The position numbers were made by a program, and so were the translations under genes. Under the pieces are notes generated by a model. That model saw only the letters and a list, made by a program, of their open reading frames with translations, did not search any database and was not told the DNA's origin. A stretch of DNA of 64,000 bases from Squalus acanthias (taxonomy: Eukaryota): NCBI GenBank assembly GCA_030390025.1, contig CM059446.1, positions 55,986,001-56,050,000 on the forward strand. The letters are read 5' to 3'. Of the stretch, positions 4,796 to 37,780 are shown piece after piece (within the stretch, counting starts at the first letter, position 1; every line of letters begins with the position of its first letter).

Positions 4796-5256
4796 CGGGT
4801 TGCCAACCCTCCAGTATTGCCCTGGAGTCTCCAGGAATTGAAGATTAATCTCCTGGACACGGCTGCGATCAACCCGGAGAGAAAATCATAGGGGCATTAA
4901 AAAAATCGAACACTTCTGTTTATTCATTATAAAAATATTGGAAATGGCAAAACAAAAAAAGGCTGCTCGACAGTCAAGCATCATCCGGTTGGGTAACGAA
5001 GAGTCTTTTCGCTTTCCAATTGGCCACGGGGGTGGCGGGGCTCCGTGAGGATGGACGTGCCGGACGACCAATGGTGGGAGTGTGGGGGCGGGGCAGTTGG
5101 AGGTCATGTGATGAAACCTCCAGGAAGACAGCCAACCAGAGTTGGCGAAGGGTCATCGACCTGAACCGTTAACTCTGTTTCTCTCTCCACAGATGCTGCC
5201 CGACCTGCTGAGGATTTCCAGCATTTTCTGGTTTTATTTCAGATTTGGCAACCCTA
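4796..5256. mobile_element. hAT-like (Blackjack-type TIR) non-autonomous DNA element
   Basis: Termini TCGGGTTGCCAA ... TTGGCAACCCTA; imperfect 8-bp flanks ctttatat / gtttatgt. The superfamily call rests on the recalled TAGGGTTGCCA TIR type. Confidence 0.65.
5146..5245 (+). mobile_element. Penelope-like 3' end fragment inserted in the MITE terminal repeat
   Basis: cgaagggtcatcgacctgaaccgttaactctgtttctctctccacagatgctg... flanked by duplicated ttggc. Confidence 0.7.
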
Positions 5257-5356
5257 GTTTATGTCGCACCTTTTAAGGTAGTAAAACGTTCCAAGGCATT
5301 TCACAGGAGCGTAATCAGGCAAAAATTGACACAGAGCCAAAGGAGATACAAGGACA

Positions 5357-5825
5357 AAAGCAAGATGCTGCGGATGCTGGAAATCTGAAATAACAACAGA
5401 AAGTGCTGGAAACACTCAGCAGGTCAGGCAGCATCGAGGAGAGAGAGAAACAGAGTCAACGTTTCAGGTCGAGGACCCTTCGTCAGAACTGGAAAAGGTT
5501 AGAGAAGAGAGGTTTTTAAGCAGGGGCAGGGAGGAGGGGAGGAAAGAACAAAGGGAAGGTCTGTGATAGGATGGAAGGCAGGAGAGATTGACTGACAAAG
5601 GGGATGATGGTGCAGGGCAAAAGGAGATGGTAATGGGACAAGTTAAGAAACAAAAGATGACTCTAGATGAGGTGTGAATGGCAATGGCAGAATCATCAAC
5701 AGCTACCATGCGAGAAGACAAGGTGTGGGGGGGGAAATTAAAAATTATAGGGGCCGAGTTTATAGTCTGAAATTGTTGAACTCGATGTTAAGTCTAGAAG
5801 GTTGTAAAGTGCCTAATCGAAAGAT
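5357..5825 (-). mobile_element. Penelope-like element 3' end (end of GIY-YIG ORF plus UTR)
   Basis: 5825-5760 translates IFRLGTLQPSRLNIEFNNFRL*, resembling the C-terminus of Penelope-like ORFs. Flanks agatacaaggaca (5344-5356) and agatatagggaca (5822-5834) look like a decayed TSD. Confidence 0.75.
5454..5490 (-). ncRNA. Minimal type I hammerhead ribozyme motif
   Basis: Minus strand AGUU-CUGACGA-AGGGUC-CUC-GACCU-GAAA-C-GUU-GACU: catalytic core CUGANGA/GAAA, stem II, palindromic AACGUU helix III region, stem I AGUU/GACU. Activity untested. Confidence 0.65.
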
Positions 5826-6649
5826 ATAGGGACAGGCAATCAAAAGCTTGGTCAAAGATAGGTTTTAAGGAGGGTTGTAAAGGAGAGAGAGGTGGAGCTG
5901 TCTGGGGAGCGAATTCCAGAGCTTAGGGCCTAAGCAGCTGAAGACACTGTCGATGGTGGCAATATCACCCATGAGAGCGAAGTCCAATCAGGTTATTTGT
6001 CCAATCTGAATGTTTTTTTTGCTGGAAGTAGTGACTGGGGTACGAATCCATAGGTTTCAGCTGCCCTCAGTGCCTCTCCCAAGTGACCACTCTCCACTTG
6101 TGAGCCCAGATGGCGAGTGTCGGCAAGTTACTGGGCCGTGGAAGGGGTGTGGGTGCAGTGGGCATCGCGCTCGAGCCTAATCCCATCCTCACTCGACAGC
6201 CAACAGCAGTCGCTGGAGAACCAGCAGGAGCAGGAACCCTCCCCTGCCCCGACTGAGGATCAGCAGGAACTTTTATTGCACAAAATAATCAATTTACAAA
6301 ATCCTGATCCATTCTCGTGGCAGAACCAAGGCAAAAAATCAACAAGGTCAGCCATAGAGTTGTGGCTCTCTCACTCTCGAAGAAAATCCTTTGATCTATC
6401 CCACTGTCTGGGAACACATCCTGAAGAAGCAGTCAGTCTGCCCGTGTGTCGAGGCCCCCAGCCCGTTACGAGTGCTAACACAGCAATTCTACACATTCTC
6501 CCACCCAAGGCAAACAATGTCTGGGGTCCCAATAGACAGCTTCCTGAACCTGGATCTCCTCCATCCACAGACGGTGACTATTGCCAGAGCGGTGTGGTTC
6601 GACTGGATCCAGCTTCCTGATGGAAATGGAAGCAGCAAGTTCCAGGAAG

Positions 6650-7105
6650 CTGATGTTGGCTCAGTTGGTAGCACTCTCGCCTCCGGAGTCAAGAAGGTCG
6701 AGGGATTCAGGCCCCACTCCAGAAACTTGAGCACAAAAATCTAGGCTGACAACCTCCTGGTGTTGTACTGAGGGAGCGCTGCACTGTCGGAGGTGCCGTC
6801 TTTTGGATAAGACGTTAAACTGAGGCCCCGTCTTCTCTCTCAGGTGGATGGAGAAGATCCACCGGCACTATTTCGAAGAAGAGCAGGGGGGAGTTCTCCC
6901 CGGTGTCCTGGTCAATATTTATCCCTCAACCAACATCACTAAAAGCAGATTATCTGGTCATTATCACATTGCTGTTTGTGGGAGCTTGCTGTGCACAAAT
7001 GGCTGCGGCGTTTCCTACATTACGACCATGACAACAAGAACTTCAATGGCTGTGAAGCGCTTTGGGGCATCCTCAGGGAATGAAAGGCGTAACAGAAATA
7101 CAAGT
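6650..7105 (+). mobile_element. Deu-domain SINE (SacSINE1/AmnSINE-like), near full length
   Basis: tRNA-like head (TTGGCTCAGTTGG), central ctgagggagcgctgcactgtcggaggtgccgtcttt...gggagcttgctgtgc domain, L2-like tail. Confidence 0.75.
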
Positions 7106-7565
7106 CGGTCCTTTTTTCCCTTTCGGTCTCTGAGCTCTCTGCTTGGGACAGACAGCCTGATGTGCTTGGCGTTCGAGAGCTGCTCCTTAGCGCTGGAGAC
7201 TGACATTTACAGAACTGCTGGTGAATTCGCAGCTTCGCTTTAGGGCTTGCTTGTGTGCAAGGAAGCTGCCTGGAATTAAAAAAAATATATATATATATAT
7301 AAACTAGGCACTAAAAGTAGAAATCATTCCGCCTGCAACATGCAAGGTGCAAGCGTGAATCATCACTGAAATCGCAGCAGCAGCAGATGATTAGAAGAGA
7401 AACCCTGACAACCCCCCCCCAACCCACCGCCCCCGCCCCCCCTCCGCACCTTGTCCTGCTGTTCGGTTCTTTGAATTGGCATAAGGTGGCAGTCCGACAT
7501 CCTGCACAAGAAACAGACCCTTGGTGTGGAGCGAGGGATGAGACGCTCTCTCTCTCTCCGTCTCT

Positions 7566-7684
7566 CTAAAAATAGCTGAGGGACAAGAAGCCAAACGGCA
7601 GCTATTTTAGGCACTGAATTTGCGTGTACACACACAGAGCTTTCTGGCCTCTGGAAGAGAAACTGCTGTGAGATGCACCAGCTG
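7566..7684. promoter_or_regulatory. Candidate MEF2/E-box enhancer core
   Basis: CTAAAAATAG (7566-7575) is a perfect YTAWWWWTAR. An inverted near-site GCTATTTTAG lies at 7601-7610 and CAGCTG at 7679-7684, all in repeat-free sequence. Confidence 0.35.
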
Positions 7685-7854
7685 TGTTATTATACCGATC
7701 TGTCTGGGGCCCTGCCTCCCTTACCGTCTAATCTTATGCCAGTGGTTCCTGTGGCCCGGGGGAATTATTACAAGCAGACAGTTAGCAAACCTATCCGATC
7801 ACTCTAACCCTTCGTCCTAATCATTAATATGAAGGCTTGTGCTGGAAGGGTGAC

Positions 7855-8180
7855 ACTCCCGTGCTGCACCGTCGGAGGTGCCGTCTTTCGGGTGAGCTGT
7901 TAAACCGATGCCACGTCTGCCCTCGCAGCTGGACGTAAAGAACCCATGGAAGAGCAGAGATGTTCAGGCCAATATTTATCCCTGAACTAACATCACCAAA
8001 GCAGATTATCTGGTCATTATCTCATTGCTGTTTGTGGGAGCTTGCTGTGCGCATATTTGGCTGCCATGTATCTTACATTACAACAGTGACTACACTTCAG
8101 AAGTACAGTACTTGATTGGTTGTAAAGCACTTTGGGATGTCCTGAGGTTGTGAAAGGCGCGATATAAATGCAAGTCTTTC
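7855..8180 (+). mobile_element. Deu-domain SINE, 5'-truncated
   Basis: Colinear with 6770-7105. Confidence 0.75.
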
Positions 8181-8394
8181 TTTAACACTAATCCCCCTGG
8201 GTTAGAGACAAGAAAATCCACCAGGATTCCCATTCCTGGTTGCTATCCAGTGGCTCCCTGTTGGAAAGTGTACACATGTGGACATGGGGTGAGGAACAAG
8301 GTCTGACTCGGCTGTGGCGACCCTGCAGTCAAATAGCCTGCTGCCATTCAACATTAAGGCTCACGTGTAAATAAAGGGCACTTGAGCAAGTAGT

Positions 8395-8642
8395 GCATCA
8401 CCTCCAAGTTCCCCTGCAAGTCACACACCATGCGAACTTGGAAATATATCATCGCTCCTTCATTGTGGTTGGGTCAAAATCCTGGAACTCCCTCCCTAAC
8501 AGCACTGTAGGAGCACCTTCACCACACAGACTGCAGCGGTTCAAGGTGGCGGCTCACCACCACCTTCTCAAGGGCAACTAGGGCTGGGCAATAAATGCTG
8601 GCCTTGCCAGCGACCTCCACATCCCAGGAACGAATTTTAAAA
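8395..8642 (+). mobile_element. LINE 3' end (CR1/L2 clade, separate family)
   Basis: Peptide SFIVVGSKSWNSLPNSTVG...LQRFKVAAHHHLLKGN*, then tail gggcaataaatgctggccttgccagcgac. Confidence 0.7.
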
Positions 8643-10242
8643 AGGCCCCCACTGCCTGTGGAACTGTGCAGCAGCATTTGTAGAAGAGAAGTTGAAGGGG
8701 AAAGAAGAGGCATTTAATATTTAAATTAAATAAGGGTGGAATTTCTTTGTGGGAGTTAAAATTAAAATTACAGAAGGACGAGGTGGGAGTGAGAATGATA
8801 ATGAGGCTTTAAAACAAACCTTTGCAGGTCATCATCTGTTGCCATTGGTTTCTGTTCCTATGGTGCTGTTATGGTAGTCCTGGGATTTACGCAGATCAGC
8901 AAGGCTGGATAATTACTGCAATAAAATGGGTGTGTTTAAGGAAACCCAACATTGTACTCAAGCTGATGACTGAAGCAATAATGTTTATCAGCTTGTAAAG
9001 CTTTAATCCAATTTTTTCAAGTCGTGAAAGAGCCAGGAATATGTGGAATTGTGGGCAACAGCAACTATTTACAAGGTTGTAATCCAAGTTAAAGGGGTCC
9101 ACAGTTGACAAACCATAAGCATCAAGTTGAATTTCTTTATTGTCTTTATCTGAAGCCCAATATCAGATTACACTGGGCAACATTTCCTCCCTCAGCAAAC
9201 TACGACCCAAAACACATGAACTGCTCGCTGATCTCACTGCTATTTGTAGAATCTTGCTGTGTGAGAATCGGTTGCCACATTTACCAACATAACAACAAAG
9301 ACTGCACTTCAAATGCTTCATTCATTGTCAATCAATTTGGGATGTTCTGAGGATGTGACAAGATGTAAATTGTCCCTCTCTATTGCACTCTGCAATCACA
9401 CCTTTCTGTTCACGTCCAGTTTTCAACCTTCCTCTTCAGAAGGATTGCTGATGAGTCCTAGACTTTGTCCCCATGGTTCCCAGGCATCGTTTCATTGCTG
9501 TTTGTGGGATCTTGCTGTGTGCAAATTTCCCTACATACCAACAGTGACTGAAATACCACCAGAGGGAACAACAAAGCCCATCTACTAAGGTAGATAAAGT
9601 GTCTCCCCGCACACCAGCACACAGCGCTCACACCTCCAGGTAAGTGGCTGGATAGCCATCAGGAGCGCAAAATCCGGCCAATTTCCCATCCCTAACTTGG
9701 GCACTAAGATCAATCGGAGCAGCCTCCCGTTACTCAGCAGAGTTCAGCTAACTCAAGTGACTAGAGCTTTGGCCTGGGACCTTCTTGGTCTGAATGGTTT
9801 GGTTACTTACTGGGCGAACTTGCCATTAGGGGGACCTCGATATATTTAATTTTTTTTTTAAAAAAGGACATGAAATGTTACGACAAATAACCTTACAACA
9901 GGCAATTCTTATAAAAAAAAACCGGGCATCTTAAAACAATGGCCACCCCGAAACTAACCCCAAGAGTAATAAATCCACCAACGCGAAGTTATTCTAAAAG
10001 AAATACTACCAGAGGAAACAACAAAAGCCCATCTACTGAGGCAGGGAAAGTGTCTACATGCACATTAGCACACAGCGCTCATGCCTCCAGGCAGGTCTAG
10101 CGTTTGAATTAACAATGCACATAGCGGACCACATCACATTCTCCACAGGCAGCTCCAGAGTCCAGTCTTCAATTGGAATCGCCATGGACTTAACCCTTGC
10201 AGTACCTTTGCTGGCTGATACATAAAGAATATAGGTTAGAAA

Positions 10243-10560
10243 TGGGTGCAGTAGTTTAGTGATTATGGTACTGGACTAATAATTCAGAGGTTGTGAATTC
10301 AAATCCCACCATGGCAGATTGTAAAACGGAATTCAATACATCTGATAAATTGTGGGGAAAGAACCAGAAAAATAACCCTGCTGGTTCACTAACGTCATTC
10401 AGGAAAGGGAACCTGCCAGTCTGGGTTACATGTGACACCAGTCCCATATATTGAGTTGACTCAATGCCCTTAGGGCAACCAGTGATGGGCAATAATTACT
10501 GCTTTGACAGTGTGTCCCCCACCCCCCCCACCCCCCGCCAACCCAAGAACAAATTTAAAA
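10243..10560 (+). mobile_element. tRNA-derived SINE sharing its 3' tail with the LINE at 8395-8642
   Basis: tRNA-like head (tagtttagtgattatggtactggac...ttcaaatccc) and tail agggcaaccagtgatgggcaataa. Confidence 0.55.
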
Positions 10561-11126
10561 AAGGTTGGAAATCCCCTGATCCCTCAGCCGGTAAAATGAA
10601 TGCGTAACTAAGTCATACAAAGCAGGAAGGACACAGGTTCAATCCTCAACCTGTTCTGAGTTAGCTGACCTGCGCTCAAGTTAGGAAGGAAAAATAAAAA
10701 ATCAGCAGCCAGGTTTCCTGCTCACGCTTTACAATCCAATGATTCCTCGCTGGAAAGGGCGTCTGGAGAGGTTTGCACTCAGTTGTAATGCCCTATGCAG
10801 TTGAATAGCCTGCCAATGTGCGCTGTTCAGTCTCACACATGAACATCTGGGCACCCGTGAAATGGTTCCGACCTCTTCAGCTGAGGGAGGGAGGCAAATC
10901 TGGAGATTTAAAACAAATCTGTTAGTTAGAAGGCATATATTGAGGCAAGCAAACAAGTCCTCCCACCCCCACCTCCTAAACAATGCTGCTCACAATTTAG
11001 GCTACGGCAGCTCTTCGTTGCCCAGCCACCCAGAGCAAACCTTCAGTCCCCATCACAGCAGCCAGCTTTGTGAAGGAATTCTAGGCTTTTTGCTTCCACT
11101 ACTGCATTCAGGAGTCCTTTACGCAT

Positions 11127-11234
11127 ACGCCAGTTCTGACGAAGGGTCATCAACCTGAAACGTTAACTCTGTTTCTCTCGCCACAGATGCTGCCTGGTCT
11201 GCTGAGGATTTCCAGCATTTTCTGTTTTTAGTTC
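11127..11234 (+). mobile_element. Short Penelope-like insertion with hammerhead motif (11132-11168)
   Basis: AGTT-CTGACGA-AGGGTCATCAACCT-GAAA-CGTT-AACT, then the PLE tail; TSD agtcctttacgcat (11113-11126) / agtcctttccgcat (11235-11248). Confidence 0.75.
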
Positions 11235-11289
11235 AGTCCTTTCCGCATGTTGACCGTACAGTGTGAAGGACTACTGTACTTCCTAAAAA

Positions 11290-11535
11290 GAACAAACTTG
11301 CATTTATAAAGCACCTTCTATGTGCTTATGCTAATGAAGTACTCTGGAAGTGTAGTCGCTGTTGTTATGCAGGGAAAGGCAGCAGCTAATTCGCGCCAAG
11401 TCTCACAAACAGTGAGAAATAATTGACCAGATAATCTATTCTAATAATGTTGGTTACGGGATAATTGTTGGCCAGAACACTGAAAGAACTGCCCTGCTCC
11501 TCTTCAAATAGTGGTTAGGGATCTCTAACATCTGG
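11290..11535 (-). mobile_element. Deu-domain SINE fragment
   Basis: Diverged reverse complement of the 6860-7105 segment. Confidence 0.65.
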
Positions 11536-12839
11536 AGAGGACAGGATAGTCAGTCCCAAATGTTGCCATTCACCAGTTAGAACTTGTGCCCCCTTGTTTG
11601 ACTCAGTTTAATGTGAAGTAAGGCTCCAAATTCACCATTCCAATATTCTTTCGCTTATATACCAAGGCAGATGCCACATTTCAATTTTCTCCATTCTTTC
11701 TTCAAGTACGTTGATACTGGAGAAGTCTTGTGGCTCTTTGCACCGACTCCAATACCCTCTGTGCACCATGGGAATTAAAACTGGACACGTCGCTCAAGGT
11801 GTAGTCTTACTGGGCAGTTCAAGGATGACTTCCTCTAACGTACTCTACTGGTCGAAGACAGGAGGCACGGTAAAACTCCTGCAACGCACAACTCACCAAC
11901 TCAAGCTCATCTAACTCGGTACAGACTGGAGATGGAACTTTGGACTCTGTGCTGGTGTGGGTTAGATCCACATTAGGCAGTGGCTTTGGGTGTACAAGGT
12001 ACATGCTGTGGGGGTGGAAGCTGTTTGGGCTAAATGCTGTAGTATTGGGCAAGATACAAACCCTTGAATTCACTTGCACTAAAAGTGGTTGCATCTGTCG
12101 CCTGTGCATCAGATTAGTGAGCTGTACAAGAACCCATGAGTAGACATACCACTTCACTGCCTTCATCAAAAATGCCCATCCCTCTGATGAACCAAGCAAC
12201 CAGGCTGTGGCTTTACCAAGTGAGTCATCAGGGCGCTTAGTGCGACTTAACAGGAAACACAACAGTAGCCAAGTAAAATATGCACTATTGGGGCGGGAAA
12301 GACAGTCCATTATCTGTGTTACAGGCTAGGATTTGGCACAGATAGAGAAACAGAAGTGTCAAGATATCTCGGTTTGGTGCAGATGTAGAATAATAATTTC
12401 CCCAGTCAGTTACTAAGCCGCACAGATGCATGCAAGACCATACCTTGAGCGTTGGTGCCATACAGCCTGAACCAACCCCAAACCACCAACTAAAAATGTC
12501 TCATTTGTTAGCTTACTTCAGACATCAAACCATATGCAAACAAACCTCACTGATGTCAATCCAAGATGACTCAACTTCCTTTCCAGATTCTGTACTGCCT
12601 CAACTAGCCTTCCCTCAATCTTGTGGCCTATTGACATCACGAATGTGGCCAGTGATGTTACTGTGTTGGTTCTTCAATACCTGAAGCACAAATGACAAAG
12701 CACATCTACCCACTTGATGAGATGACCTTAAATCAAAAGGCTTTTTCTACTGGCGCTCTTTACCCAAGGGAGGGTGATTTCTCAATTGTTCTATATTTGT
12801 TTCGTTAATAGAAACATTTCACGCGTTTCAAAAAGCTTA

Positions 12840-12925
12840 AAAAAGGAAACAACACAAGTGGGGAAGTTGGAAAGGAAAAGACCCAACTCTACTGCTGGGA
12901 ACTTTTTGCTGTTTTATTACATCTA
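12840..12925 (-). terminator. Candidate distal polyadenylation site of PIAS1
   Basis: Minus strand reads TGTAATAAAAC (UGUA overlapping AAUAAA, 12913-12918), followed about 30-75 nt later by a U/GU-rich element (TTGGGTCTTTTCCTTT...CTTGTGTTGTTTCCTTTT). Confidence 0.5.
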
Positions 12926-15772
12926 AAAGATCTCTACATTAACAGGTAACATTCATTAGGTAAACAATTTCTTTCAATGCATGAAATAAATATATTCACG
13001 TGGTACTTTATACAGACTGACACTGCTCTAACTATACTCAATTATAAAAAAAAAGCCATTTCTCTGGTTTGGCATGCGATCACGGAAACCAGCACTGTGA
13101 AAGATTTAAGGCAGTAAAATTATCAGAGTTGTCTTTGACACCCTCGGAGAGAAGTGATCACAGAATTTACAAATTCGCAGAAGAGGTGGAGTTTCCATGC
13201 TTGGGAGAATCTGGTTTACAGTGACACTGTCGGTGTAAATAAAATTGACTCTCAACACAGCACACTCCTAGATCACCCCACAATACATACCCGGGTAGGT
13301 AAATCACGCTGTGCACAAGCTGGCTTATTCCTTTAAAAAAATGTTTTCTCTTCACTTTTCAAAATGCGGCACATTACCTGAAAGATCCAGCCGTGCAAGA
13401 CACAGTTTACTCCAGACAGGCCCATAATCAGATTAAAGCACAGCTTGGATCCAAGTATCGCCTTCCAATGAACCAAACCCACTTTTCATTCAGTCCTATT
13501 AAAAATGGAGTTCATGAAACAAGCAGAACACTGGAAACAAAATCCTGATTAAAGCATAAAACATCTCCTCACTGGCTGAACATTCAGTCAGTCCATTGCC
13601 AGACTAGACCTGATACATACAGTCGCGCATTTTACAAACCAGACGCAACTCAACCTTGAGTATTTCCCGCTGCATCATTTTCACGGAGCTGCTAAACAAA
13701 TGACTCTTTGGACAGTGGTACAGATACTAATAAACGACTGATTTAATCTGAAGTTTACAAAAATCCCAGCTCAGATGGAACACTCTTCCCTCCCCCACAG
13801 TAATTGAGTTTATTAGAACTCACTCAAATTGTATTTTTATTATCCAACAAATTTCATTCATTTGCACCCTTTGGTTATAACTTGCTATTTGCCCATGTGT
13901 CAATTTTCTCCCCATCTCTCAAAGGTGTTGTCTCCTTGCTGGGATATGGTTCCACAGGGGCTGATCACCTTCTAGTATCTTAGCCAAGTGGCCATGGTTA
14001 GTCTCCACAGTGAGTGTCAGCAGGCTACTTTCACTGTGTGTGGGGGGGTTAAGAGGACAGGAACCATAGATGAATCTAATCCTGGCCTGATCCCATATCC
14101 ACATATCTACTTCAAGTAGGGGTCACTGGACAGTCATCAGGAGCAGGAACCCCACTCCTTAACTCCAAGAGGTGCTGAGGCCAATTACAGTACCCTACCA
14201 TGCCAGGTTGAGATCAGTTTACAACGCAGGTGGAAAATTCAACTAAATTGGGACTTTTTTGATCTGTATGGCTTACTGCTACACTGGGTGGTCCTTTACT
14301 CAGATGGCATCTCTCTAACATACTATTCTAAACAGAACACTGCATAAAAAAAACAAAGTCTCTCTAGTGCACTTGCATATGAACTGATTGGACCAATACA
14401 CAACAGTAAGAGAGGTGTAGGATAGAAAGAGCTAGATTTTTAAAACGTGGATGTTTCTTTAGTACACTTAATAGTCTGTGTACATTCCAACTACTTGTTT
14501 GCAAATCCTGCTCTACTACATTCAAGGGTTTGAGATACAAAGTTACCATCTCAATACATCTCGAGGAGAGAATTTGGAACATTCACCTGGAAAACAATCA
14601 TTTTAGTTGGTTTATACCCACACTTGGCAAGGATCCCAATGCACTGAACGAGCAACATCGAATTATCGGACCATGAATTAAAACAAAATCAAAGGTCATG
14701 GAAGAGGCAGCGTGGTTAATTGGTGTGTCGATACACCCATGAATCCCCAGATTCGAGCAGTCCAGTTTCAGCTGGGGAGAGCATGCAGTGGAAGCTGGTG
14801 GTTTGCCACAGGGGCCGTCTGAAATACAGAGTGTTTCCGCACCCAATCTGGCGGTCTTCCTGGGAAGCTGGTTATAAAATGACAATGGCTGCTCAGGGAA
14901 CAGTGCATGTGTACAAGGGAAAAATACATTTCTATTTTTTTTTTTAAAAAAGGGTACACAAACTGTGGAGGCATTCTGCAGTTAGAGCTTTTCAGGGAAC
15001 AGTGAAAATTAAATGACTGATTTTTCTAAAGTGTAAATCACAATGAAAGGTGCAACAGAAGAAATGACTCCTCTCCATTATTAACTTAAAGTTCCTTAAT
15101 GTTTGAAAAATGCTACTTTGTAAAATGGAGCGCGAGTGGAAGTTGTGAAAGGATAGTCCACACCCCCCCACCCCCAAAAGATTTACCAGAAATGGCCTTT
15201 TTTTTGTGAAAAATTGTACGATACTGTGCATTCCCCAAAGCTACTTCCTGCAAACGCAGAGGGAATGATATGGGAAACAGTCAAGATACTTTACATAACT
15301 TAAAAAGTATAATAAAATTATTTTGCACAAAAAAAGGAAAATACTATTGTTGTCAACCATTGACATCTCGGTTCTTTCTGAAAGAAAGAATATTCTACAG
15401 TGAAGTACAAGAATGGAAAATTCCTAATTCAAATAATGTCAATTGTGAAGGAAATAATGCCATCAAACAACAAATACAAAAAGTAATATCACGGAACAGA
15501 CAAATACATCGTAAAAACTCTGCTTTCACAAAGTGAACTGAAATAACCTTAAAAGACAGACAGTCTCGAATTTATATACAAAAGTTAACTGAAAATATAG
15601 TATTTTGTTCTCTGTACATGGTGTCTTTTTTTAATTTTTTTTTGTTTATTTAAAAAAAGGGTCTCTACACTTCTAAATTTTTTTTAAAAGATGAAACAAA
15701 CCAGATTTTTTTCTTCTCTTTCTCTCTCCCCCTCCCCTCGAAAAAACCCCACATTATCCATTATTTCAAATC
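12890..15772 (-). other. Probable PIAS1 3' UTR
   Basis: Follows the stop codon; AU-rich and mostly repeat-poor. Minus-strand AATAAA at 15645-15650, 13836-13841, 13809-13814 and 12913-12918. The distal end is inferred. Confidence 0.55.
13930..14310 (-). mobile_element. Family X SINE inside the putative PIAS1 3' UTR
   Basis: Contains ggggtcactggacagtcatcaggagcaggaacc and gccaagtggcca, reverse complements of family X motifs. Confidence 0.6.
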
Positions 15773-16078
15773 TTAGTCCAACGAAATAACATCTGGCATG
15801 GTGCCAAAGATGGTGCCACTTTCCACACTGCTCCGGTTAGCCCCAGGATGCCCGAGGTTCTCCCGCAAGCTGCTGGAGGAGACAAGGCTGCTGTTGCTCC
15901 CGCTGCTGCTGCCGTTGGTCACCGCCAGCGTGTTGGCAGGCGCAGAGTTTGGTTGCTCCAGGAACATTTGCGAAGAGCCGTAGGGGAAGAATCGGTTGAG
16001 CGAGGAGTGAATGAGGTCCTGATCCTCTGAAGCACTGGCCGCAGCAGCTGCAGCAGCAAGGAGGGAGGTGTTGTAATG
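15773..16078 (-). CDS. PIAS1: PIAS1 terminal coding exon 14 (poly-Ala, S/T-rich region, C-terminal SIM-like DVISLD)
   Basis: HYNTSLLAAAAAAASASEDQDLIHSSLNRFFPYGSSQMFLEQ...IFGTMPDVISLD*; tag acceptor at 16080-16079; TAA stop at 15775-15773. Confidence 0.96.
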   Translation of the reverse strand, partial: HYNTSLLAAAAAAASASEDQDLIHSSLNRFFPYGSSQMFLEQPNSAPANTLAVTNGSSSGSNSSLVSSSSLRENLGHPGANRSSVESGTIFGTMPDVISLD

Positions 16079-16615
16079 CTACAGCAGGAGCAAGAACATA
16101 AGAGTACTGAGCGTTAATATCAGAATATTAATACTGCTCTTTGAGAGGCTCTGCAAGCTTATTAATTCTCCCACTGTCATCTTGGTGTCGCCTGGCTAAT
16201 TATAATGTGCAAGTATTCAAATATTGACATTTATTATCTGCATAAAAAAGCAGCTTCCTTTAATGAAACTTAAATCAAATACACTTAACCTTTAATGCAC
16301 CTGAAACATTTAACAAACCAGCTATTTGATACAGCTTGCAATGGAATTTGCATCCATCACAAGACAGGCTCAGTTTCAAATATTTTGTTGAAGTTAACCA
16401 CTTTATATGTTCAGACTTACTCTATCCTGGATATACAATTGTCCCTCACACCACGTTGTCTCTTCCCCATGTGCTATCCTCCGCTCACACTTTCTCCTTA
16501 TTTAAGACACAGTGAACAAATGGCCTCTATCATATTTCTCCTCCTGACAGAATCTCTGCAGATGAAGTATTTTGTTGACTATGTAGCTTGAACCCGAAAC
16601 TCAATGTTTGCAGCC

Positions 16616-16638
16616 GGGGGGGGGGGGGGGGGGGGGGG
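16616..16638 (+). repeat. Poly-G tract (G23)
   Basis: Direct. Confidence 0.9.
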
Positions 16639-17066
16639 CCGGAAATCATGAATGGGAATCCATGCTGCAGTGCACTAGGTTAGTGCACGGTCACTGCACC
16701 ACCAGGCCTCCCTGTACTGGTTAGGAATCCAGTAACTATAGTTTCCTCGATGGCCCAGTTGGTAAATACACAATGCAATTCCCCACTGAGGCCCGAGTTT
16801 CAATGGTAACATCTGTGCCCATCTCAGCCAAACTGGGGACCAATGGGCACTGCAAATCACCTCGGTGTCCCTGAGCTATATTTTGGAGGGAGGATGAAAA
16901 GGGTGAAAGAAATTTTAAAAATAGGGCTCCTGATCACTAGCCAGCAATTACACATGCAGATGTCCGATCAGTTTTTATTTAAATGTAATTAAAGTTTTAA
17001 AATTTTGCATTGGACTTGGAAGTGAACGGTTTTCCGCTGAGACATCACAATGCTTATGCAAATAAA

Positions 17067-17181
17067 TGTGAGAAGTCGCACAACACCAGATTATAGTCCA
17101 ACAGTTTTATTTGAAATCACAAGCTGGTGTTGTGCGACTTCTCACATTTGTCCACCCCAGTCCAACACTGGCATCTCCACA
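17067..17181. mobile_element. Collapsed Penelope-like insertion forming a perfect 26-bp hairpin
   Basis: Arms 17064-17089 / 17124-17149; 13-bp TSD ttatgcaaataaa at 17054-17066 and 17182-17194. The PLE assignment is from recall of shark PLE termini. Confidence 0.7.
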
Positions 17182-17269
17182 TTATGCAAATAAAAGTCAT
17201 GGATACATTCATGATATAAAAAGCAAGATTTCAATGACAAAAGTGCTCACTGACCGACATGTTACATAC

Positions 17270-17307
17270 CTGATTGTCCCCTTGTAAGAAGGGAAATAGG
17301 TCTAAAC
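17270..17307 (-). CDS. PIAS1: PIAS1 coding exon 13 (38-nt small exon)
   Basis: LDLFPFLQGDNQ; cag/gtatgt; 38 nt, restores phase 0. Confidence 0.92.
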
Positions 17308-17834
17308 CTGTTCAAACAAGAGAAGAGGCAAATATTAGAACAAAATAGAAGTGCCAAATACCTCAAAACTTTTATCAGCACAGACCCTACTGCAATCAGA
17401 CTTTGGATATCAGGCTTCATCTGTACCCAAGTCCCATCGCTACAGATCAGAGAGCAAGGTCGAGTAACGACAGGCTTTTACATCTGTTTGTTTAAGCTTG
17501 GATCGCAAAACAGCGATGCCCGTGAGTCAGCCTCTCCACGTTTACACTGTTAAAAGCACCTTACCCTGACAGAATTTTTTGTGGGTCTACAACTGTGCTA
17601 TTGGGACAAAAGTGGTGGTCTTGGCAATGTAAACGTGTGGAGCTGGCTCATAAATTCAGTCTTTCACAATTTGGAAAATAGAAAAAGCCGGTTAAAAAGC
17701 AGATTGAAAAATACTACACCTCTGACACAATTAGCATTTGTGTGCTTTCAAAGTTACCAATACTGTACACAGAAGGGTTTATACTTTGTGTCTGCTGGCT
17801 AACTTGAAATAGAATGTGAGATGGAGATATCACA

Positions 17835-18230
17835 TCACATTGAGCCCATACACACCACAAAGGTCCCAGGTTTGAACTTACCTTTCGGCTGGAGGTGGCA
17901 TTTAAGGTACGACATGGCTGATCTCAGTACCGCCAGGCCTGAGAGGGGGTAAAGATAGATCACCCAAGATTCCCACTCCACATAGCTATCCAGCAGCCCC
18001 TTCTGGAAAGCGGTCTGGGACAAATGAGTATCAATTGAGGGCAGAACAGGAATCGGGCGAGAACAGAAACAGGATCCTGCTGCGACGATCCCCACAGTCA
18101 AATAGCCCGCTGATACCCAGTATCTAGACTCACATAAAGTGTAGCCACTTGCGTGAGGCAAGACAACTGATGGGAACTATTGAACTGAACCCCAGCAAGT
18201 GTCAGTGCCTTCAGAAGAGGGGGGAGAGAA
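17835..18230 (+). mobile_element. Family X SINE
   Basis: aaggtcccaggtttgaac head...gctatccagcagccccttctggaaag...gtcaaatagcc...agactcacata...ggaactat. Confidence 0.6.
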
Positions 18231-18574
18231 ATGAGGATAAAACACATCTGATGCCTGCGTAATAGAACGCCAAACACACGCATTTCAAAGAATCTCACCA
18301 GCTTTTAATAATCAAATCACAAACTCAATCATCTTTTACATGCTTTTTTTTGTTGATTTCAATGTTTTTTTATTTACTCCATGAGTTTGAGGGGATTCAG
18401 AGTATGACAGAGGCAAGTTAACACAGCTGAGGCACTTTCTGAACCTGGATTCATGATTGTATCGCTTCTGATTTTTGGTTAAATGGTATTATTCTGTTCT
18501 TAGCATACAATGCCTCCAATGAGTCATTTTTCAGCACCAAAGCCACAGTTGAAGACACACTGCAAGTAGCTTAC

Positions 18575-18714
18575 CTTGCAGTTCATATGGCAGAGTTGGT
18601 AAGTGGTATGAATGACGGTAGTCTTGAAAAGGAGCAGAGATAAAGTTTGTATCCAGAGTCGGTATGCTTGGAGTTCTTGTTACTGGCGATGTCTGATGGT
18701 GCAGGTTTAAAACC
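18575..18714 (-). CDS. PIAS1: PIAS1 coding exon 12
   Basis: VLNLHHQTSPVTRTPSIPTLDTNFISAPFQDYRHSYHLPTLPYELQ(G); cag/gtaagc; 140 nt. Confidence 0.92.
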
Positions 18715-18837
18715 CTGTATGAAAGAAAGACATTAGATGTTAAAGGCAATTCATTTGTAACTTAGCCATATAACAGACCAGAAAGAAGCAAGTTTGATTT
18801 CTGGTCTCTGATGAATTGGCCAATGTCAGCAAAGGTT

Positions 18838-18960
18838 AAGAACATAAGAATTAGGAGCAGGAGTAGGCCATACAGCCCCTCGAGCCTACTCCGCCATTCA
18901 ATATCATGGCTGATCTTCGACCTTAACTTCACTTTTCCGCCCGATCCCCATATCCCTTGG
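18838..18960 (-). mobile_element. CR1/HE1-type 3' tail
   Basis: aagaacataagaattaggagcaggagtaggccat... is the reverse complement of the shared tail. Confidence 0.75.
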
Positions 18961-19134
18961 GTTGTGCTCCTGATCACCATTAAGTGACCTCTGCTCAAAA
19001 GTGTATGCGTGGATGTTGGATTGGGACAAGATTAGGCTTGGCCCTGTTTAATATAGCCTGCTAATGCTCAACTGCCCAAAGAATGGTCACCTGGACAAGG
19101 TAGCAGAGGGTGTCTGGTGCTCGTGGAAGTTCAC

Positions 19135-20349
19135 CAGCATGAGTTCTTTGATTGAGTTCTTTGATGAGGTAACAGAGAGGGTTGCTGAGGGTAATGCAGT
19201 TGACGCAATGGACATGGATTTCCAAAAGTCTTTGATAAAGTGCCACATAATAGGCTTGCCAGCAAAGTTGAAGCCCATGGAATAAAAGGGACAGTGGCAG
19301 CATGGATATGGAATTGGCTAAGTGATAGGAAACAGAGAGTAGTGGTGAACGGTTGTTTTTTGGACTGGAGGAAGGTATACAGTGGTGTTCCCCGGGGTCG
19401 GTTCTAGGACCACTATTTTTCTTGATATATATTAATGACTGGGATGTGGGTGTACAGGGCACAATTTCAAAATCTGCAGGTGACACAAAACTTGAAAGTA
19501 GTGAACATTGAGGAGGAGAGTGATAGACTTCAGGAAGACAGACAAGCTGGTGAAATGGGTGGACACATGGCAGATGAAATTTAACGCAGAAAGTGTGAAG
19601 TGAAAGAATGAGGAGAGGACATATAAACTAAATGGTACAATCTTGAAGGGGATGCACGAACAGAGAGACCTGGGGGTACGTGTGCACAAATTGTTGAAGG
19701 TGGCAGGGCAGGTTGAGAAAACAGTTAAAAAAGCTTATGGGATCCTGGGCTTCATAAATAGAGGTATAGAGTACAAAAGTGTGGAAATTATGATGAACCT
19801 GTATAAAACACTGGTGCAGCCCCAGCTGGAGTACTGTGTTTAATTCTGGGCACCGCACTTTAGGAAGGATGTGAAGGCCTTAGAGAAGGTGCAGAAAAGA
19901 TTTACGAGAATGATTCTAGGGACGAGGGACTTCAGTTACGTTGATAGACTGGAGAAGCTGGGGATGTTCTCCTTGGAGCAGAGAAGATTTGATAGAGGTG
20001 TTCAAAATCATGAGGGGTCTGGACAGAGTAGAGAGAGGGAAACTGTTCCCATTGGCAGAAGGGTCGAGAACCAGAGGACACAGATTCAAGGTGATTGGCA
20101 AAAGAACCAAAGGTGACGTAAGAAAAAACTTTTTACGCAGCGCGTGGTTAAGACCCGAAAGGGTGGTGGAGGCAGATTCAATCACAGCTTTCAAAAGGGA
20201 GTTGGATAAGTACCTGAAGGAAAAAAAATTGCAGGGCTACAGGGAAAGGGCAGGGGAGTGGGACTAGCTGAAGTGCTCTTGCAGAGAGCCGGCACGGGCT
20301 CGACGGACCGAATTTCCTTCTTCCGTGCTGTAACCATTCTATGATTCTA
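19135..20349 (+). mobile_element. CR1-like LINE, 5'-truncated, RT region with frameshifts
   Basis: Peptides LIEFFDEVTERVAEGNAVD, EQRDLGVRVHK, LYKTLVQPQLEYCV, SRTRGHRFKV; ends (attct)atgattcta. Confidence 0.9.
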
Positions 20350-20380
20350 CGTCAGTACCTCCAGGAGAACAGAAAAAGGT

Positions 20381-20405
20381 GGGGGGGGGGGGGGGGGGGG
20401 GGGGG
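20381..20405 (+). repeat. Poly-G tract (G25)
   Basis: Direct. Confidence 0.9.
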
Positions 20406-20817
20406 AAGAGGAATGATAGAAAAACAAACAGAAACAATATCTGGAACTCATGAGCAAAAATGCAACTGATTTATTGTTAGCGTGTGCGCTCCTGCCTTTG
20501 CTGTGAAAATGTAAGTACAGCTCCAGTAGTCCCACTGATTCATGGCCCAAGTGCAGCTTTGTGGCCAATGGAACTGATTAGAATCATCCTGTGGGAACCA
20601 ACATTGATCTTTTTCAAGCCCATACGGCAAAGGTTAAACTAGATAACTAAAAATCCAGCTGGGTATTTGGGTAATTTAAATGTTTTGATTTTAATTTGCA
20701 GGAGCAACATGCACAGATCTATAAAGATTCACATTGCAGCTGGATGAAAATTTCCAGAGATTTGAGTCATGCAATCGCTGCCAAGATTTACACATGAAGA
20801 ACGGCCATTTGGGCAGG

Positions 20818-21243
20818 TAACACGGTGGCATAGTGGTTAGCACTGGTGCCTCACAGCGCCAGGGACCCGGGTTCGAATCTGACCTCGGGTGACTGTCTGT
20901 GTGGAGTTTGCACATTCTCCCCGTGTCTGCGTGGGTTTCCTCCGGGTGCTCCGGTTTCCTCCCACAGTCCAAAAATGTGCGGGTTAGGTTGATTTGGCTA
21001 TGATAAATTGACCCTTAGTGTTGGGGGGGATTAAATATGTGGGGTTATGGAGATAGGATGGGATATGTTAGGGGGAATTAAATACGTGGGGTTACGGGGG
21101 TAGGGTGGGATGTGTGTACTGTGGGGATTAAAGCAGGGACAGGGTACTGGATTTGGATGATCAGCCATGATCGTATTGAATGGTGGAGCAGGCTCGATGG
21201 GCCGAATGGCCTACTCCTGCTCCTAGATTCTATGTTTCTATGT
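20818..21243 (+). mobile_element. HE1-like V-SINE, full length
   Basis: A box TGGCATAGTGG, B box GGTTCGAATC, V-domain tgtggagtttgcacattctccccgtgtctgcgtgggtttcctccgggtgctccggtttcctccca, CR1-type tail. Confidence 0.85.
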
Positions 21244-21807
21244 TAACATGGAGCTATGCCTTAACGTGAGTAAGCACCCTCGCAAGAGACCAGAGAAAAT
21301 TAAGGGGAGATTCTAAGAAAATCGATGTAGGAGTGGTTTACAGCATGTAACACAGTCTTGGAGTTTGAATGGTTAACAATTAAGATCAGCACCCTGACAA
21401 CTATGTTGCAATCCTGCTCTTTAAGTGCTGAAGTAACACACTGCATCTGACATTTCTATACTGCCTTTCACACAATGAAATGTCTCAAGGTGCTCTACAA
21501 ATAGGAACTAGGCAAATTAAAGAAAGAGCACAGAGTTTAAGCTTTGGGAAAACTTTTGAAAGTAGAAAGAAAGGCAAATCCCAGAGTGTAGGGGCATAGC
21601 GAATACTGGATGTACCAACAATCATGGTTTGGGAGTGAAGAGCACACTCATTTATCTTTTGTTCTACATGTATTACCAGCTTTCAGATGACCATGGATAG
21701 GGGATTGCTGAAAGTCCATCAAATCGTGGATTTTTTTTGTTGTACCCAAGCTCGCTGCAAACAAAAAACAGCCTCACACAAGACTGTGATTTCAACCCGA
21801 AGCTTAC

Positions 21808-21970
21808 CCCTTGTTGATGGGCGGCGACGGAGAAGACATCGAAGGGTACCTCTTCGCAGGTGGTTCCTCTTCCTCCTCTTCCGATGAACTATCGAGCGTC
21901 AGATCAATCACTTCAACTGTTCTATTATCTTGAGATGAATGTCTGTGCTCGGACAAGCTTTTACACGCAC
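21808..21970 (-). CDS. PIAS1: PIAS1 coding exon 11 (SUMO-interacting motif VEVIDLT plus acidic/serine tract)
   Basis: ACKSLSEHRHSSQDNRTVEVIDLTLDSSSEEEEEEPPAKRYPSMSSPSPPINK(G); tag/gtaagc; 163 nt, keeps phase 1/2. Confidence 0.92.
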
Positions 21971-22557
21971 CTAGTGAACAAATTAAAATAGTCGGCATTT
22001 TTGTACAAAAACAAAGGCACATTTGAAACAGGCTGTCAGCGCAATTGGGGCACTTGTGGCAACGATGAAAGTTCTCTGTTGCTGGGGCAAGTTCTATCTT
22101 CATCTCTGGGCAGTTTCTTTCTTTTTTCAGTCTCCCTTCAGCAAAGGTTGATCTGCCCCCAGATAAAGTTAAATGCACTTGCAAAACATACTATGGATTA
22201 TTATTTAACCTTCACCTGACACAAGACAGGCAAACCTGTTCTAAAGTTTCACTACCATGCTGGGATTTGAAGAAACAATGCAATCTTGTCTGACATCAGG
22301 GAACATGAGTTTTAAATGGGCTTAGAAGGTCTTTCTGCAGTATTATTTAGCACCATTTCTGGGCCAGAGTTCTACATGGTTCCCAGCTGAAGGCCACATT
22401 GTCAAGAAGTTCATCTGTGCACTGAATACCAGACAAGTACTGAGCAAAAAGAGACAGTCAAGGTTGTCTTCTGTATAGTTTGGCTGTACCTTTTGTAGTA
22501 TAATATTGCTTGTGTTTTGTCTCATTTAATTGTAAACCTGACTGGATATTTAGCCTG

Positions 22558-22692
22558 ACTCCATTTCCACTTCATGATTCTGTACATTTTAGTTCTGACG
22601 AAGGGTCATAGAGCTGAAACGTTAACTCGGTTTCTCTCTCCACAGATGCTGTCTGACCTGATGAGTATTTCCAGCATTTTCTGTTTTTATTT
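22558..22692 (+). mobile_element. Short Penelope-like insertion with hammerhead motif (22591-22627) and 33-bp 5' filler
   Basis: TSD tggatatttagcctg (22543-22557) / tggatatctagcctg (22693-22707); core CTGACGA...GAAACGTT. Confidence 0.75.
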
Positions 22693-24145
22693 TGGATATC
22701 TAGCCTGTTTAGAAGCTGGTTTGCTTGTAGTATTTTTTGTCTACTAGAAGTGTAAGGTATATTTGATTCAGTGCACCTGCAAAGGTTAAATAAGACTACG
22801 CCAACCTATAACGCGTCTTTCCAATCTTGGCGAGTGCATTTCGCTTGAGGCACCATCCCTTAAGATTCAGATAATAGACCCTACCCTATAGTGAGAGAAA
22901 CTCAATGTCACAGTCCTACCATAATTCTTCCTTTCCCAGAACTATGCAACTCCTCACCTCCCTCAATCTTTGGTACCTCCAGCAATCTACAGGCTTTTAA
23001 ATCCCAAACATGGCATCACCTATTAACTATTTTCAATAACCTTGTCTTTTCTTTTTTCAACGTTGATGGCGTCCTACATTATGTTCCCTGGCCCTTTACC
23101 TAGTACTCTCAATTTTTAAAAAATCCTGTGGTCTGATACTTCACTCCATTTCCACTTCATGATTCTATACATTTTGGAATAGTGTATTGATTTTGCAAAT
23201 GTTACACCACAGAAAGCAGCTAGCATTCAGACAGCTGCAAAAGCAAATAAGACACTTGAGTTTTAATAACCATTACAAGATGCTTCCAGAAAGGTTTACA
23301 TTTGAGATTTAAGCTGTGTTGTTTTACTATTCAGTTTTAGCAGAAGGTAACAATTTGTGGTCAAGAAACTATTTTTCTTAGCATAATGCTTCTGCACCTC
23401 TCAAACTGGATTGCAGAAGGCATTTAGAATCAAAAAATTCTGAGCTGCAAAACCAACACTACAGCCTGTTAAAACACAGACATAGAAATAAAGGGTTTTA
23501 ACTGATTCTAGTGTTTCTCCCCAAGAGATTTTAGACCGTCTTACTGGAGGACGACGACTGCTCCTCTGTCAATACTGCTCAATTTTTGTTCACGAGTACA
23601 ATCCCAGTGTGTCTATCTTGTGGGTCAGCGTCAAGAATACTGCAACACACAATGATGGAATGCAGGTCGAGGCCATAGTAAGCTCTTGGCCCCAATCATT
23701 GTGGGGCTAGGTACTTGCTCAAGGAGAGTGAGAAACTATAGGACCAACTGTTCCATTTAGTTTAGACCAACATTTTTACTGGTACTCTTTCACTTGCTGG
23801 TTAGAAATGAGGGCAAGCCTGGTTTGTAATAGCATTCCCTTTTTTTCCTATTTCCCACAACACCCATTTTTATGCTATAAGACCCACGTCCACTTGGAAA
23901 TGGATTGAGACAGCTCGACCATATTTCACATGCCAGGCTTATATATCCCATCAGTGTGATATGGATTTGAACCAAGAGGTGAAAGGAGTCTCCTTGACCA
24001 CGCCACTATCCAGATTCTGCTAAAACAAAGCTTTCTTGGATCACAGATAGTTTGGTACAAGAGGCCATTTGGCCCATTGTGCCATGTTGGAGCTATTCCT
24101 CTAATCCCTGCTCGTTCCCCATACCCTCGTAACAAAATTGCGTAC

Positions 24146-28044: not shown

Positions 28045-28225
28045 CAATAGAAACAGAAAATGCTGTAAACACACAGCAGGTCAGTGTTCAAAGGCATTGA
28101 ATTCAGATTCTTTAAATCAAAATATTAGCCCATCTTCTGCCAAATGCTGACTCTGCTACATCTGTAGCATTGTCTGGTTTTATTTCAGAATTTTCAGCAT
28201 TCTAACTTTTCTTATCTGTTTCAGC
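28045..28225. mobile_element. Degraded Penelope-like inverted end pair
   Basis: aaacagaaaatgctgtaaacacacagcaggtcag ... tagcattgtctggttttatttcag. Confidence 0.5.
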
Positions 28226-37003: not shown

Positions 37004-37425
37004 GTAACTTTTATTTTGAACAATTAAAAAAAAAAATGTTTTATTTCTGGGAAGACCTGAAGCAGAATTGCTGATGCAGGTGTAGTGAAAAGCTATAGAA
37101 TGCAATGTCTGGTGGGGTCATGTAAAGAGGGGCCAAAATCGTTGGGGGGGCAGAGGAAGCAGGAAGAGGAGAAACTAGAAAATGAATTAAATTACATCAA
37201 AGTGTTAGAAATGGATGGTTTACCAAAAATTTTAACCATTTTCATAACTAATCATTTGGAAAAATGTTTGCATGATGGGCACTTGAAGATTTACTGTTTC
37301 AATTAACACATCATTAGTAGAACAAGAGTAACACCATCACCAAACTGGCACCTGAAATTTCTGTATTTCACATTTTGCATACATTAGGGTACAATAATTC
37401 AAAGTCTAGACCAGTACATCAGTAC

Positions 37426-37524
37426 AAAAGCAAAATACTGCGGATACTGGAAATCAAATAAAAACAGAAAATGCTGGAAGTACTGCCTGACCTGCTGAGC
37501 ATTTCCAGCATTTTCTGTTTTTAT
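37426..37524. mobile_element. Collapsed Penelope-like insertion with 22-bp perfect hairpin
   Basis: Arms ataaaaacagaaaatgctggaa (37458-37479) / ttccagcattttctgtttttat (37503-37524); TSD atcagtac at 37418-37425 and 37525-37532. Confidence 0.75.
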
Positions 37525-37780
37525 ATCAGTACCTCGGCATCAGTGAACCGATCAACTGCAACAGCTTTTCAGAACACCAAGCACAAAATCAGAATTCATG
37601 CTGTACTATAAACAGTAACGAGTTATTAAATCTATAATTCACATTTTTTCAGAGCCAGCTATCAATAAACTGCATTGAAAAAAAACTTCAGCCCCCAAAC
37701 AGTTAATGAGCACTGTGATTCTGTGCAAGAGGAAGACAAGACAATTTAACCATCAATAATTCAGATATAGCTGTACTCAC

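Follow-up and report, generated by a model that had tools for sequence, protein, structure and literature searches.

Minimal hammerhead motifs of a Penelope-like element in Squalus acanthias, and genomic copies that begin at their first base

The same hammerhead-like motif occurs at four places in a 64,000-nucleotide (nt) stretch of contig CM059446.1 of Squalus acanthias (assembly GCA_030390025.1, positions 55,986,001 to 56,050,000), the whole of which is called the window here. An earlier note, made from the letters alone, had read these places as minimal hammerhead ribozymes carried by the ends of Penelope-like retroelements. Which element brought them here, and does the ribozyme leave a trace in its copies? 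We consider it very probable that the motifs are minimal type I hammerheads in the pseudo-long terminal repeat (pLTR) of a young, high-copy Penelope-like element (PLE), and that the window copies are truncated retrocopies; the short ones would have arisen by run-off copying of mostly uncut RNA. The hammerhead itself is of an already known kind, the minimal hammerhead ribozyme (min-HHR) of PLEs, of which this family is a new member. What is new is a hint: the starts of many genomic copies coincide with the first letter of the motif, not with the predicted cut, and this point likely marks the start of the element RNA.

The window holds these sequences of the family (ORF, open reading frame; UTR, untranslated region; RT, reverse transcriptase; aa, amino acids):

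5354-5825, minus strand: 5'-truncated copy, probably of Neptune type, with the last ORF codons, 3' UTR, hammerhead and tail (identified from genomic relatives)
5760-5825, minus strand: C-terminal end of the RT/GIY-YIG ORF, stop at 5762-5760 (the C-terminus is the one seen in intact 971-aa ORFs)
5454-5490, minus strand: predicted minimal type I hammerhead with intact core, 5-bp stem II and GUU triplet, CTC-loop subfamily
5147-5244, plus strand: short copy beginning inside the core at G8, without CUGA and with A15.1 changed to C (TTGGC repeats on either side)
11130-11236, plus strand: short copy with a hammerhead (11132-11168) and the ORF start and tail
22591-22700, plus strand: short copy with a hammerhead (22591-22627) and tail, beginning at the first base of stem I
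37421-37529, no strand assigned: fold-back of two tail fragments, without hammerhead
28046-28200, no strand assigned: two degraded tail-only fragments in opposite orientations, without hammerhead

All four places named in the earlier note were found again. Three have intact cores (5454-5490 on the minus strand, 11132-11168 and 22591-22627 on the plus strand), and the fourth, which had been put at 5146-5174 on the plus strand, is a truncated copy whose first base we place at 5147. Motif positions given with a sign are counted from C3 of the hammerhead core as 0; this puts the start of stem I at -4 and the predicted cut between +28 and +29. The 5454-5490 copy reads as stem I (AGUU/GACU), core CUGACGA, one extra A, stem II (GGGUC/GACCU, 5/5 pairs), GAAA, CG and UU, with the predicted cut between 5458 and 5457. 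It does have the best stem II, as had been claimed: the 11132 and 22591 copies form four of five pairs, the latter with a G.G mismatch. An ACGU palindrome, the extra A, the GUU triplet and a 4-bp stem I are present in all three intact-core copies. The type I core, stem II and short stem I described earlier therefore stand. The helix III palindrome has to be corrected from AACGUU to ACGU (15.1-16.1 by hammerhead numbering), and the GUU triplet holds for the window copies, with GUC instead in part of the youngest subfamily.

The window copies are 84-91% identical to one another over about 100 nt (E about 1e-30), and their common sequence continues for 70-105 nt beyond the motif. Taken alone, the core pattern is no more frequent in the window than expected by chance (10 matches against a shuffle mean of 6.2; 11/100 shuffles reach 10). 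An Rfam covariance-model search gave no hammerhead match at E<=5, which is expected because the motif is without helix III. The three short copies begin at -6 (11130), -4 (22591) and +5 (5147), and the first of them, starting 6 nt before C3, is flanked by a 14-nt target duplication with one mismatch. The 5147 and 5354-5825 copies lie tail to tail. The former cannot be active because it begins at G8 and has A15.1 changed to C, and all four window copies are likely inert, truncated retrocopies.

Two further observations concern the surroundings of these copies. The 22591 copy is separated from its left target duplication by a 33-nt filler (22558-22590). This filler matches, with one mismatch, 23143-23175, about 550 nt downstream; from this match, it is likely a templated insertion at the 5' junction. 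Positions 4797-5256 are occupied by a small element, about 460 bp long and bounded by terminal inverted repeats (TIRs), and the 5147 copy sits inside its right repeat.

The parent element was sought in the whole 3.7-Gb genome, where an RT query gave 21,809 candidates, 150 of which were scored. Fifteen long-ORF loci were fetched: in nine the frame stays open for 1004 codons (971 aa when counted from the first ATG), and in 8 of the 15 a hammerhead lies on both sides of the ORF, with a spacing of 3189-3202 nt. The intact unit is therefore about 3.2 kb of pLTR-ORF-pLTR, in which one hammerhead overlaps the ORF start and the other is 270 nt past the stop. Identity among full-length copies is 98-99%, and the family is therefore young. 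It is also abundant, with at least 42,304 exact hammerhead cores genome-wide (14,858 with G10.1 and 27,446 with A10.1, as disjoint 33-nt patterns; reversed controls gave 0). The Penelope-type ORF end that had been noticed about 270 nt from the minus-strand hammerhead was correct in translation and distance, with its stop at 5762-5760. The Penelope-like origin is borne out as well: matching ends occur on intact RT and GIY-YIG ORFs with pLTR tandems, and relatives of the 5354-5825 copy (90-93% identity over about 430-470 nt to 39 other best genomic matches) continue upstream into RT and GIY-YIG sequence.

The element has the features of an endonuclease-positive PLE: a single ORF that joins RT to GIY-YIG at the C terminus, a pair of cysteines lying between GIY and YIG, pLTRs in partial tandem, 5' copies that are inverted and a 30- to 40-bp tail. 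The last three are given as PLE features in the portion of PMC8557442 used here, in which a CX2-5CxxC linker and the GIY-YIG cysteines mark Neptune or Nematis. The linker before the endonuclease is CX4CxxC, within that pattern, and the clade is likely Neptune. Homologues of the protein number 621 at E<=1e-30 among 7992 scored, the closest named one (71%) being from Chiloscyllium. Two points weigh against this assignment. The Pfam scores of the ORF for RVT_1 (E 2.5e-5) and GIY-YIG (E 4e-4) are both under the curated cut-offs, and the putative clade comes from a motif, not from a tree.

How does the motif compare with known hammerheads? In the portion of Cervera and De la Pena (2014, PMC4209133) used here, metazoan PLE min-HHRs, including those of fish Xena, Poseidon and Neptune, have the same type I topology and conserved core, an extra nucleotide between 9 and 10.1, a palindromic 15.2-16.2, no loop III and a 4-bp helix I. 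They also lie in both pLTRs and occur mostly as dispersed single truncated copies. However, the copies reported there number about 4,000 in coelacanth and about 9,000 in Xenopus, against the 42,304 or more counted here, and helix II here is 5 bp long with a closing pair that is mostly A-U or G.U, not G-C. A G10.1-C11.1 pair, called highly conserved in that portion, is rare here (533 C11.1 matches), which speaks against our assignment, but the position still pairs, and the pair is a tendency in the same source, not part of its descriptor. Cartilaginous fish are unnamed in the text parts and one of the two supplement files of PMC4209133; the other supplement may list sharks. A literature search, with Repbase and subscription papers outside it, gave no report of a shark hammerhead ribozyme among the matches listed. 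Other hammerhead families with a different stem I were not evident in 100 of 1,169 genomic rows, a count that equals the control.

Conservation of the motif was assessed in 39 of 94 tail-selected copies, those long enough to span the hammerhead. A second allele in at least four copies was present at 0/11 core sites versus 24/61 upstream sites (Fisher p 0.012), and the unpaired A between 9 and 10.1 was present in 39/39. The ACGU palindrome and all four stem I pairs were found in 7/7 evaluated sequences, and departures from the palindrome in copies are mostly CpG-type. Subfamilies differ at tolerated sites: N7, loop II, pair 10.1-11.1 (A-U, G.U or G-C), H17 (82 U, 16 C and 2 G in a hand count of 100 rows) and 1.1 (100/100 rows with A or G). 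Covariation, which the earlier note had suggested checking, was seen at pair 10.1-11.1. C11.1 occurs in 533 copies, and G10.1 is its partner in 70/100 rows although A10.1 is the overall majority (hand count); within the CTC-loop lineage, copies with C11.1 have G10.1 in 34/36 rows (hand count).

Several points count against reading this conservation as that of a working ribozyme. Alignment noise in a poly-C tract makes the upstream sites look more variable than they are. The 17 nt that follow stem I match the core in constancy (non-major fraction 0.047 versus 0.037); they encode the ORF N-terminus and are therefore no neutral control. The earlier suggestion that the core be compared with its flanks thus had a mixed outcome, with the core steadier than the 5' flank but not steadier than the coding 3' flank. 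Given the overlap of the hammerhead with the ORF start, part of the motif could be maintained by constraint on the protein or on RNA binding. The pairing changes at 10.1-11.1 appear to be one lineage-level event and for that reason give weak support, and 30/100 C11.1 rows are an unpaired A-C. Self-cleavage of the element motif is a prediction.

These points raise the possibility that the hammerhead is vestigial: it would no longer cut, and it would be kept through its overlap with the ORF start, the promoter region and the protein-binding site. The constant coding flank agrees with this, as do the absence of an excess of copy starts at the cut site (see below), the inactive rod predicted for the monomer, and the ribozyme mutants of the anole element, which had no effect on in vitro insertion in the portion of PMC11167929 used here. 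However, the core is unchanged in the C7 subfamilies, where it is noncoding because only U7 subfamilies have the first AUG there. H17 switches between U and C only, which would be a Leu/Ser change if translated. In addition, the 3' UTR is down to about 67% identity between the window's subfamily and the young subfamily (as is the pLTR as a whole), versus 86-87% for hammerhead plus tail. We therefore regard a vestigial hammerhead as unlikely.

The predicted monomer fold is a rod that pairs the core with 15.2-1.1 and is not a hammerhead. A double-hammerhead fold has a predicted energy of -0.3 to -13.7 kcal/mol and is less stable than two monomer rods in 7/7 sequences. This unfavorable modelled energy fits the low dimer activity of min-HHRs and the protein-assisted cleavage of the anole element given in the portions of PMC4209133 and PMC11167929 used here, and dimer cleavage in this family would be by analogy with that literature. 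We propose that the ribozyme would cut after GUU or GUC as a double hammerhead sharing the ACGU helix, probably with help from the protein, and that cutting would be weak because the monomer prefers the inactive rod. Stability of the monomer fold was considered as support and rejected (intact copies have z of -0.09 to -2.1, and what they are predicted to form is no hammerhead). As a separate observation, two head-to-head hammerhead pairs (G000:C1:10883503-10883570 and 12650732-12650799) have exactly 2 nt between their C3 positions and lie at a short palindrome.

Do the 5' ends of copies show a footprint of cleavage? Only 2/89 lie at +27..+30, with no excess at the cut site (small numbers). Genome-wide, 47,583 copies have GAAA and an exact tail and 1,816 lack GAAA. 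Thirty loci of the latter were fetched, and 19 turned out to be right ends of TIR elements at the triplet (17 by terminus pattern and 2 by the upstream half). These elements are 650-860 bp long, start with GGG, have GGGCTGGATTTT-type termini and make a 3-bp duplication (loci L229-L257 and L291-L315 on contig G000:C1). The family, which we take to be Harbinger-like, has about 60,000 termini genome-wide and other preferred sites besides the hammerhead GTT, and it splits roughly 2-3% of hammerhead copies at the GTT triplet. Apparent starts at the cut site are therefore mostly insertions of Harbinger-like miniature inverted-repeat transposable elements (MITEs) that duplicate GTT. The roughly 21 non-MITE starts among 100 rows are flat over +25..+33, with 3 at +29 (hand count; small numbers), and fold-back arms that end at +29 can come from the GTTAAC palindrome or from stem I microhomology; a small genuine peak is conceivable. 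Recurrent junctions of GUU with GGG at the predicted cut were considered as ligation products, which was rejected; they are left ends of the 650- to 860-bp TIR elements, for which the triplet is a hot spot at the DNA level. This is a warning that starts at a cut site can stem from a DNA transposon that duplicates the cleavage triplet.

Copy starts do cluster at stem I. Forty-five of the 94 tail-selected copies begin at -14 or later, that is, within or just before the hammerhead. Per nt, the rate of 5' ends is 0.032 at -5..0; at the cut site it is 0.006, and upstream of -16 it drops to 0.001-0.004. Among 60 core-selected copies, 13 end at -15..-2 versus 0/47 at -30..-16 (rate ratio 8.8, p 2e-6, with approximate exposure). 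A pattern forcing non-element bases at -11..-8 had 1,298 matches, and the first 100 rows gave 99 distinct copies: 35 inverted and 64 noninverted with starts at -7..0, 40 of the 64 at -3..-5. Half of the noninverted copies (32/64) have a target duplication of at least 8 nt, mostly abutting the element or overlapping it by 1-3 nt, and no common exon. As a candidate cap-derived base, a G precedes AGTT in 9/16 noninverted copies, several within the target duplication, and is clearly untemplated in 2. The 3' ends of the 94 copies fall into two groups about 35 nt apart (44/94 at +90..+104 and 42/94 at +125..+139). Several short copies (L380-L382, L321) have one target sequence in common, TCTTAAAGGG, which suggests repeated insertion into one other repeat, or later duplication.

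The sequence before stem I has a constant layout. Of 92 distinct long upstream sequences, 86 have a TTAAA-type box 29-32 nt ahead of the A at -4, and in 80 this A is embedded in CCAGTTC. These copies are homologous, and the box and CCAGTTC therefore show a layout and are not independent support. We take the box to be TATA-like and CCAGTTC to be initiator-like; the box could also be a branch point.

A pile-up at stem I without an excess at the cut site suggests run-off at a transcription start on uncut RNA. In the mechanism that we propose, the element protein would begin reverse transcription at two internal tail sites, as in the anole element. Starting from the 3' pLTR, it would make long, randomly truncated copies such as 5354-5825. 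Starting from the 5' pLTR, it would reach the 5' end of the RNA near the first base of stem I, run off there and leave 100- to 135-bp copies such as 5147, 11130 and 22591, single or fold-back. The insertion template would be mostly uncut RNA. More tentatively, and with somewhat less than even confidence, we suggest that the transcript begins at the first base of the hammerhead, behind the TATA-like box (-29 to -32) and on the initiator-like CCAGTTC, and that cleavage would decap the mRNA.

The 5'-end cluster is open to other readings, namely, a splice acceptor, hairpin release and microhomology, and further points weigh against a transcription start. The fetched 5'-end samples are all from contig C1, and 29/45 short copies are inversion junctions, some of which are not independent because they are two arms of one insertion. 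It is quite conceivable, if short of an even chance, that the cluster marks a splice acceptor (pyrimidine tract, CAG before UU) or release at a cDNA hairpin or at a microhomology. The upstream sequence resembles a branch point, pyrimidine tract and CAG, and the spread of starts from -3 to -5 resembles an exon-end consensus. In Drosophila virilis, the Penelope intron ends at the 5' end of helix I, according to the portion of PMC4209133 used here. The hammerhead is also rich in short palindromes, and 35/99 such copies are inverted. However, in the 32 noninverted copies with duplications of at least 8 nt, the duplication mostly abuts or overlaps the element, with no common exon between, and a hairpin in the template would halt RT at +33, not at -4. 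Contigs from eight runs (seven guessed to be RNA and one of uncertain kind) hold the element, and no joint at the candidate acceptor was among their best-supported joints listed. Their depth drops steeply upstream of the hammerhead, but such contigs cannot show starts, ends or level.

Known elements offer partial parallels. In the D. virilis Penelope (Schostak et al. 2008, PMC2377424, in part), an internal TATA-less promoter is followed, 46 bp after the start, by a 75-bp intron that ends at helix I, whereas here helix I itself would mark the RNA 5' end, and no intron turned up. PAc (Poseidon) of Anolis carolinensis, as described in the portion of Frangieh et al. (2024, PMC11167929) used here, is closer: its ORF start overlaps the hammerhead, its cut site is 26 nt after the first AUG, its two 3' ends are 30-40 nt apart, and uncut RNA appears to be the template. 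The matching AUG here is found in the youngest subfamily (locus L130:3387-3415), where the core supplies the first in-frame AUG (A6-U7-G8), which precedes the cut by 26 nt; the subfamilies seen have a second AUG in common, at +51. Unlike PAc, our element has the CX4CxxC linker of Neptune/Nematis, the AUG is part of the core and absent from C7 subfamilies, and copy 5' ends cluster at stem I, a cluster that does not appear in the covered portion of the PMC11167929 main text. A literature search, again with Repbase and subscription papers outside it, found no statement linking the start of a PLE hammerhead with a transcription start site.

Could the short copies be a family of their own, SINE-like (short interspersed element) or a retrozyme? 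Many are just 100-135 bp long and have their own target duplications. Non-LTR retrozymes (Li et al. 2026, bioRxiv 10.64898/2026.07.22.740005, in part) are likewise hammerhead-bearing pLTR derivatives, and one chondrichthyan genome was positive in that report. However, retrozymes form tandem arrays of at least two consecutive units, whereas the window copies are dispersed singles. The short copies are scattered, not tandem, form a continuum with longer truncations, and carry the loop II and 10.1 variants of long copies from several subfamilies. We consider an independent family very unlikely.

The remaining question is whether a window copy has a role in the host, whose gene context is as follows:

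15773-63715, minus strand: PIAS-family gene, stop at 15775 (found with short peptide motifs)
About 63700-63200, 47000, 37830, 35500, 24230, 21900, 18620 and 16000, minus strand: PIAS exons

The paralog is presumably PIAS1, as the earlier note has it. The 22591 copy, the sole intronic one, is antisense to the pre-mRNA, as had been stated; the 11132 copy is also antisense and lies 4.6 kb past the stop codon. The earlier note had placed the 5454-5490 copy in the PIAS1 read-through orientation, and it is indeed in the sense orientation. Its intact core and this orientation would suit co-option by the host, for example, to cut PIAS read-through RNA. However, it sits 10.3 kb beyond the stop, from which six AATAAA separate it, the window offers no partner on its strand, and it is about 8% diverged from its closest relatives, as any old copy is. 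In read-through RNA it is also predicted to pair with the antisense of the 5147 copy and to be buried in about 100 bp of duplex (-190 kcal/mol, z -16.7), and the remaining window copies are antisense. Relevance to PIAS1 is therefore unsupported, given a copy that is far past the stop, partnerless and predicted to be duplexed. A host role for the window copies is unlikely, and co-option of one of them seems to us extremely improbable. The copies within 5147-5490 are independent insertions about 110 bp apart, and a long double-stranded hairpin is expected in any transcript across them.

Other repeats in the window include a tandem array at 2030-2893 (repeating unit about 60-62 bp long, or 30 bp as a subunit; 93-96% identity; three frames open) and a weak tRNA-like match at 10251-10310 (E 0.32), which is probably the head of a SINE. 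Fragments of a long interspersed element family, presumably CR1-like, lie at 19148-20344, 24686-25767 and 51742-53185, with 65-85% mutual identity.

The role of PLE hammerheads is called unclear in the portion of PMC8557442 used here. As a test bed this family is useful: it is young, its intact 971-aa copies have both hammerheads, and its datable ends number in the tens of thousands. The copy ends indicate insertion via mostly uncut RNA that is bounded 5' by the first base of the ribozyme, which makes a sharp prediction for the RNA 5' end. If this is true, run-off from the 5' tail copy would leave about a fifth to a half of insertions as 100- to 135-bp hammerhead stubs, and genome copies would map the transcription start site. 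Cleavage would then remove the cap together with some 33 nt, among them, in the youngest subfamily, the first AUG, and the ribozyme would be a switch on the mRNA rather than a step in insertion.

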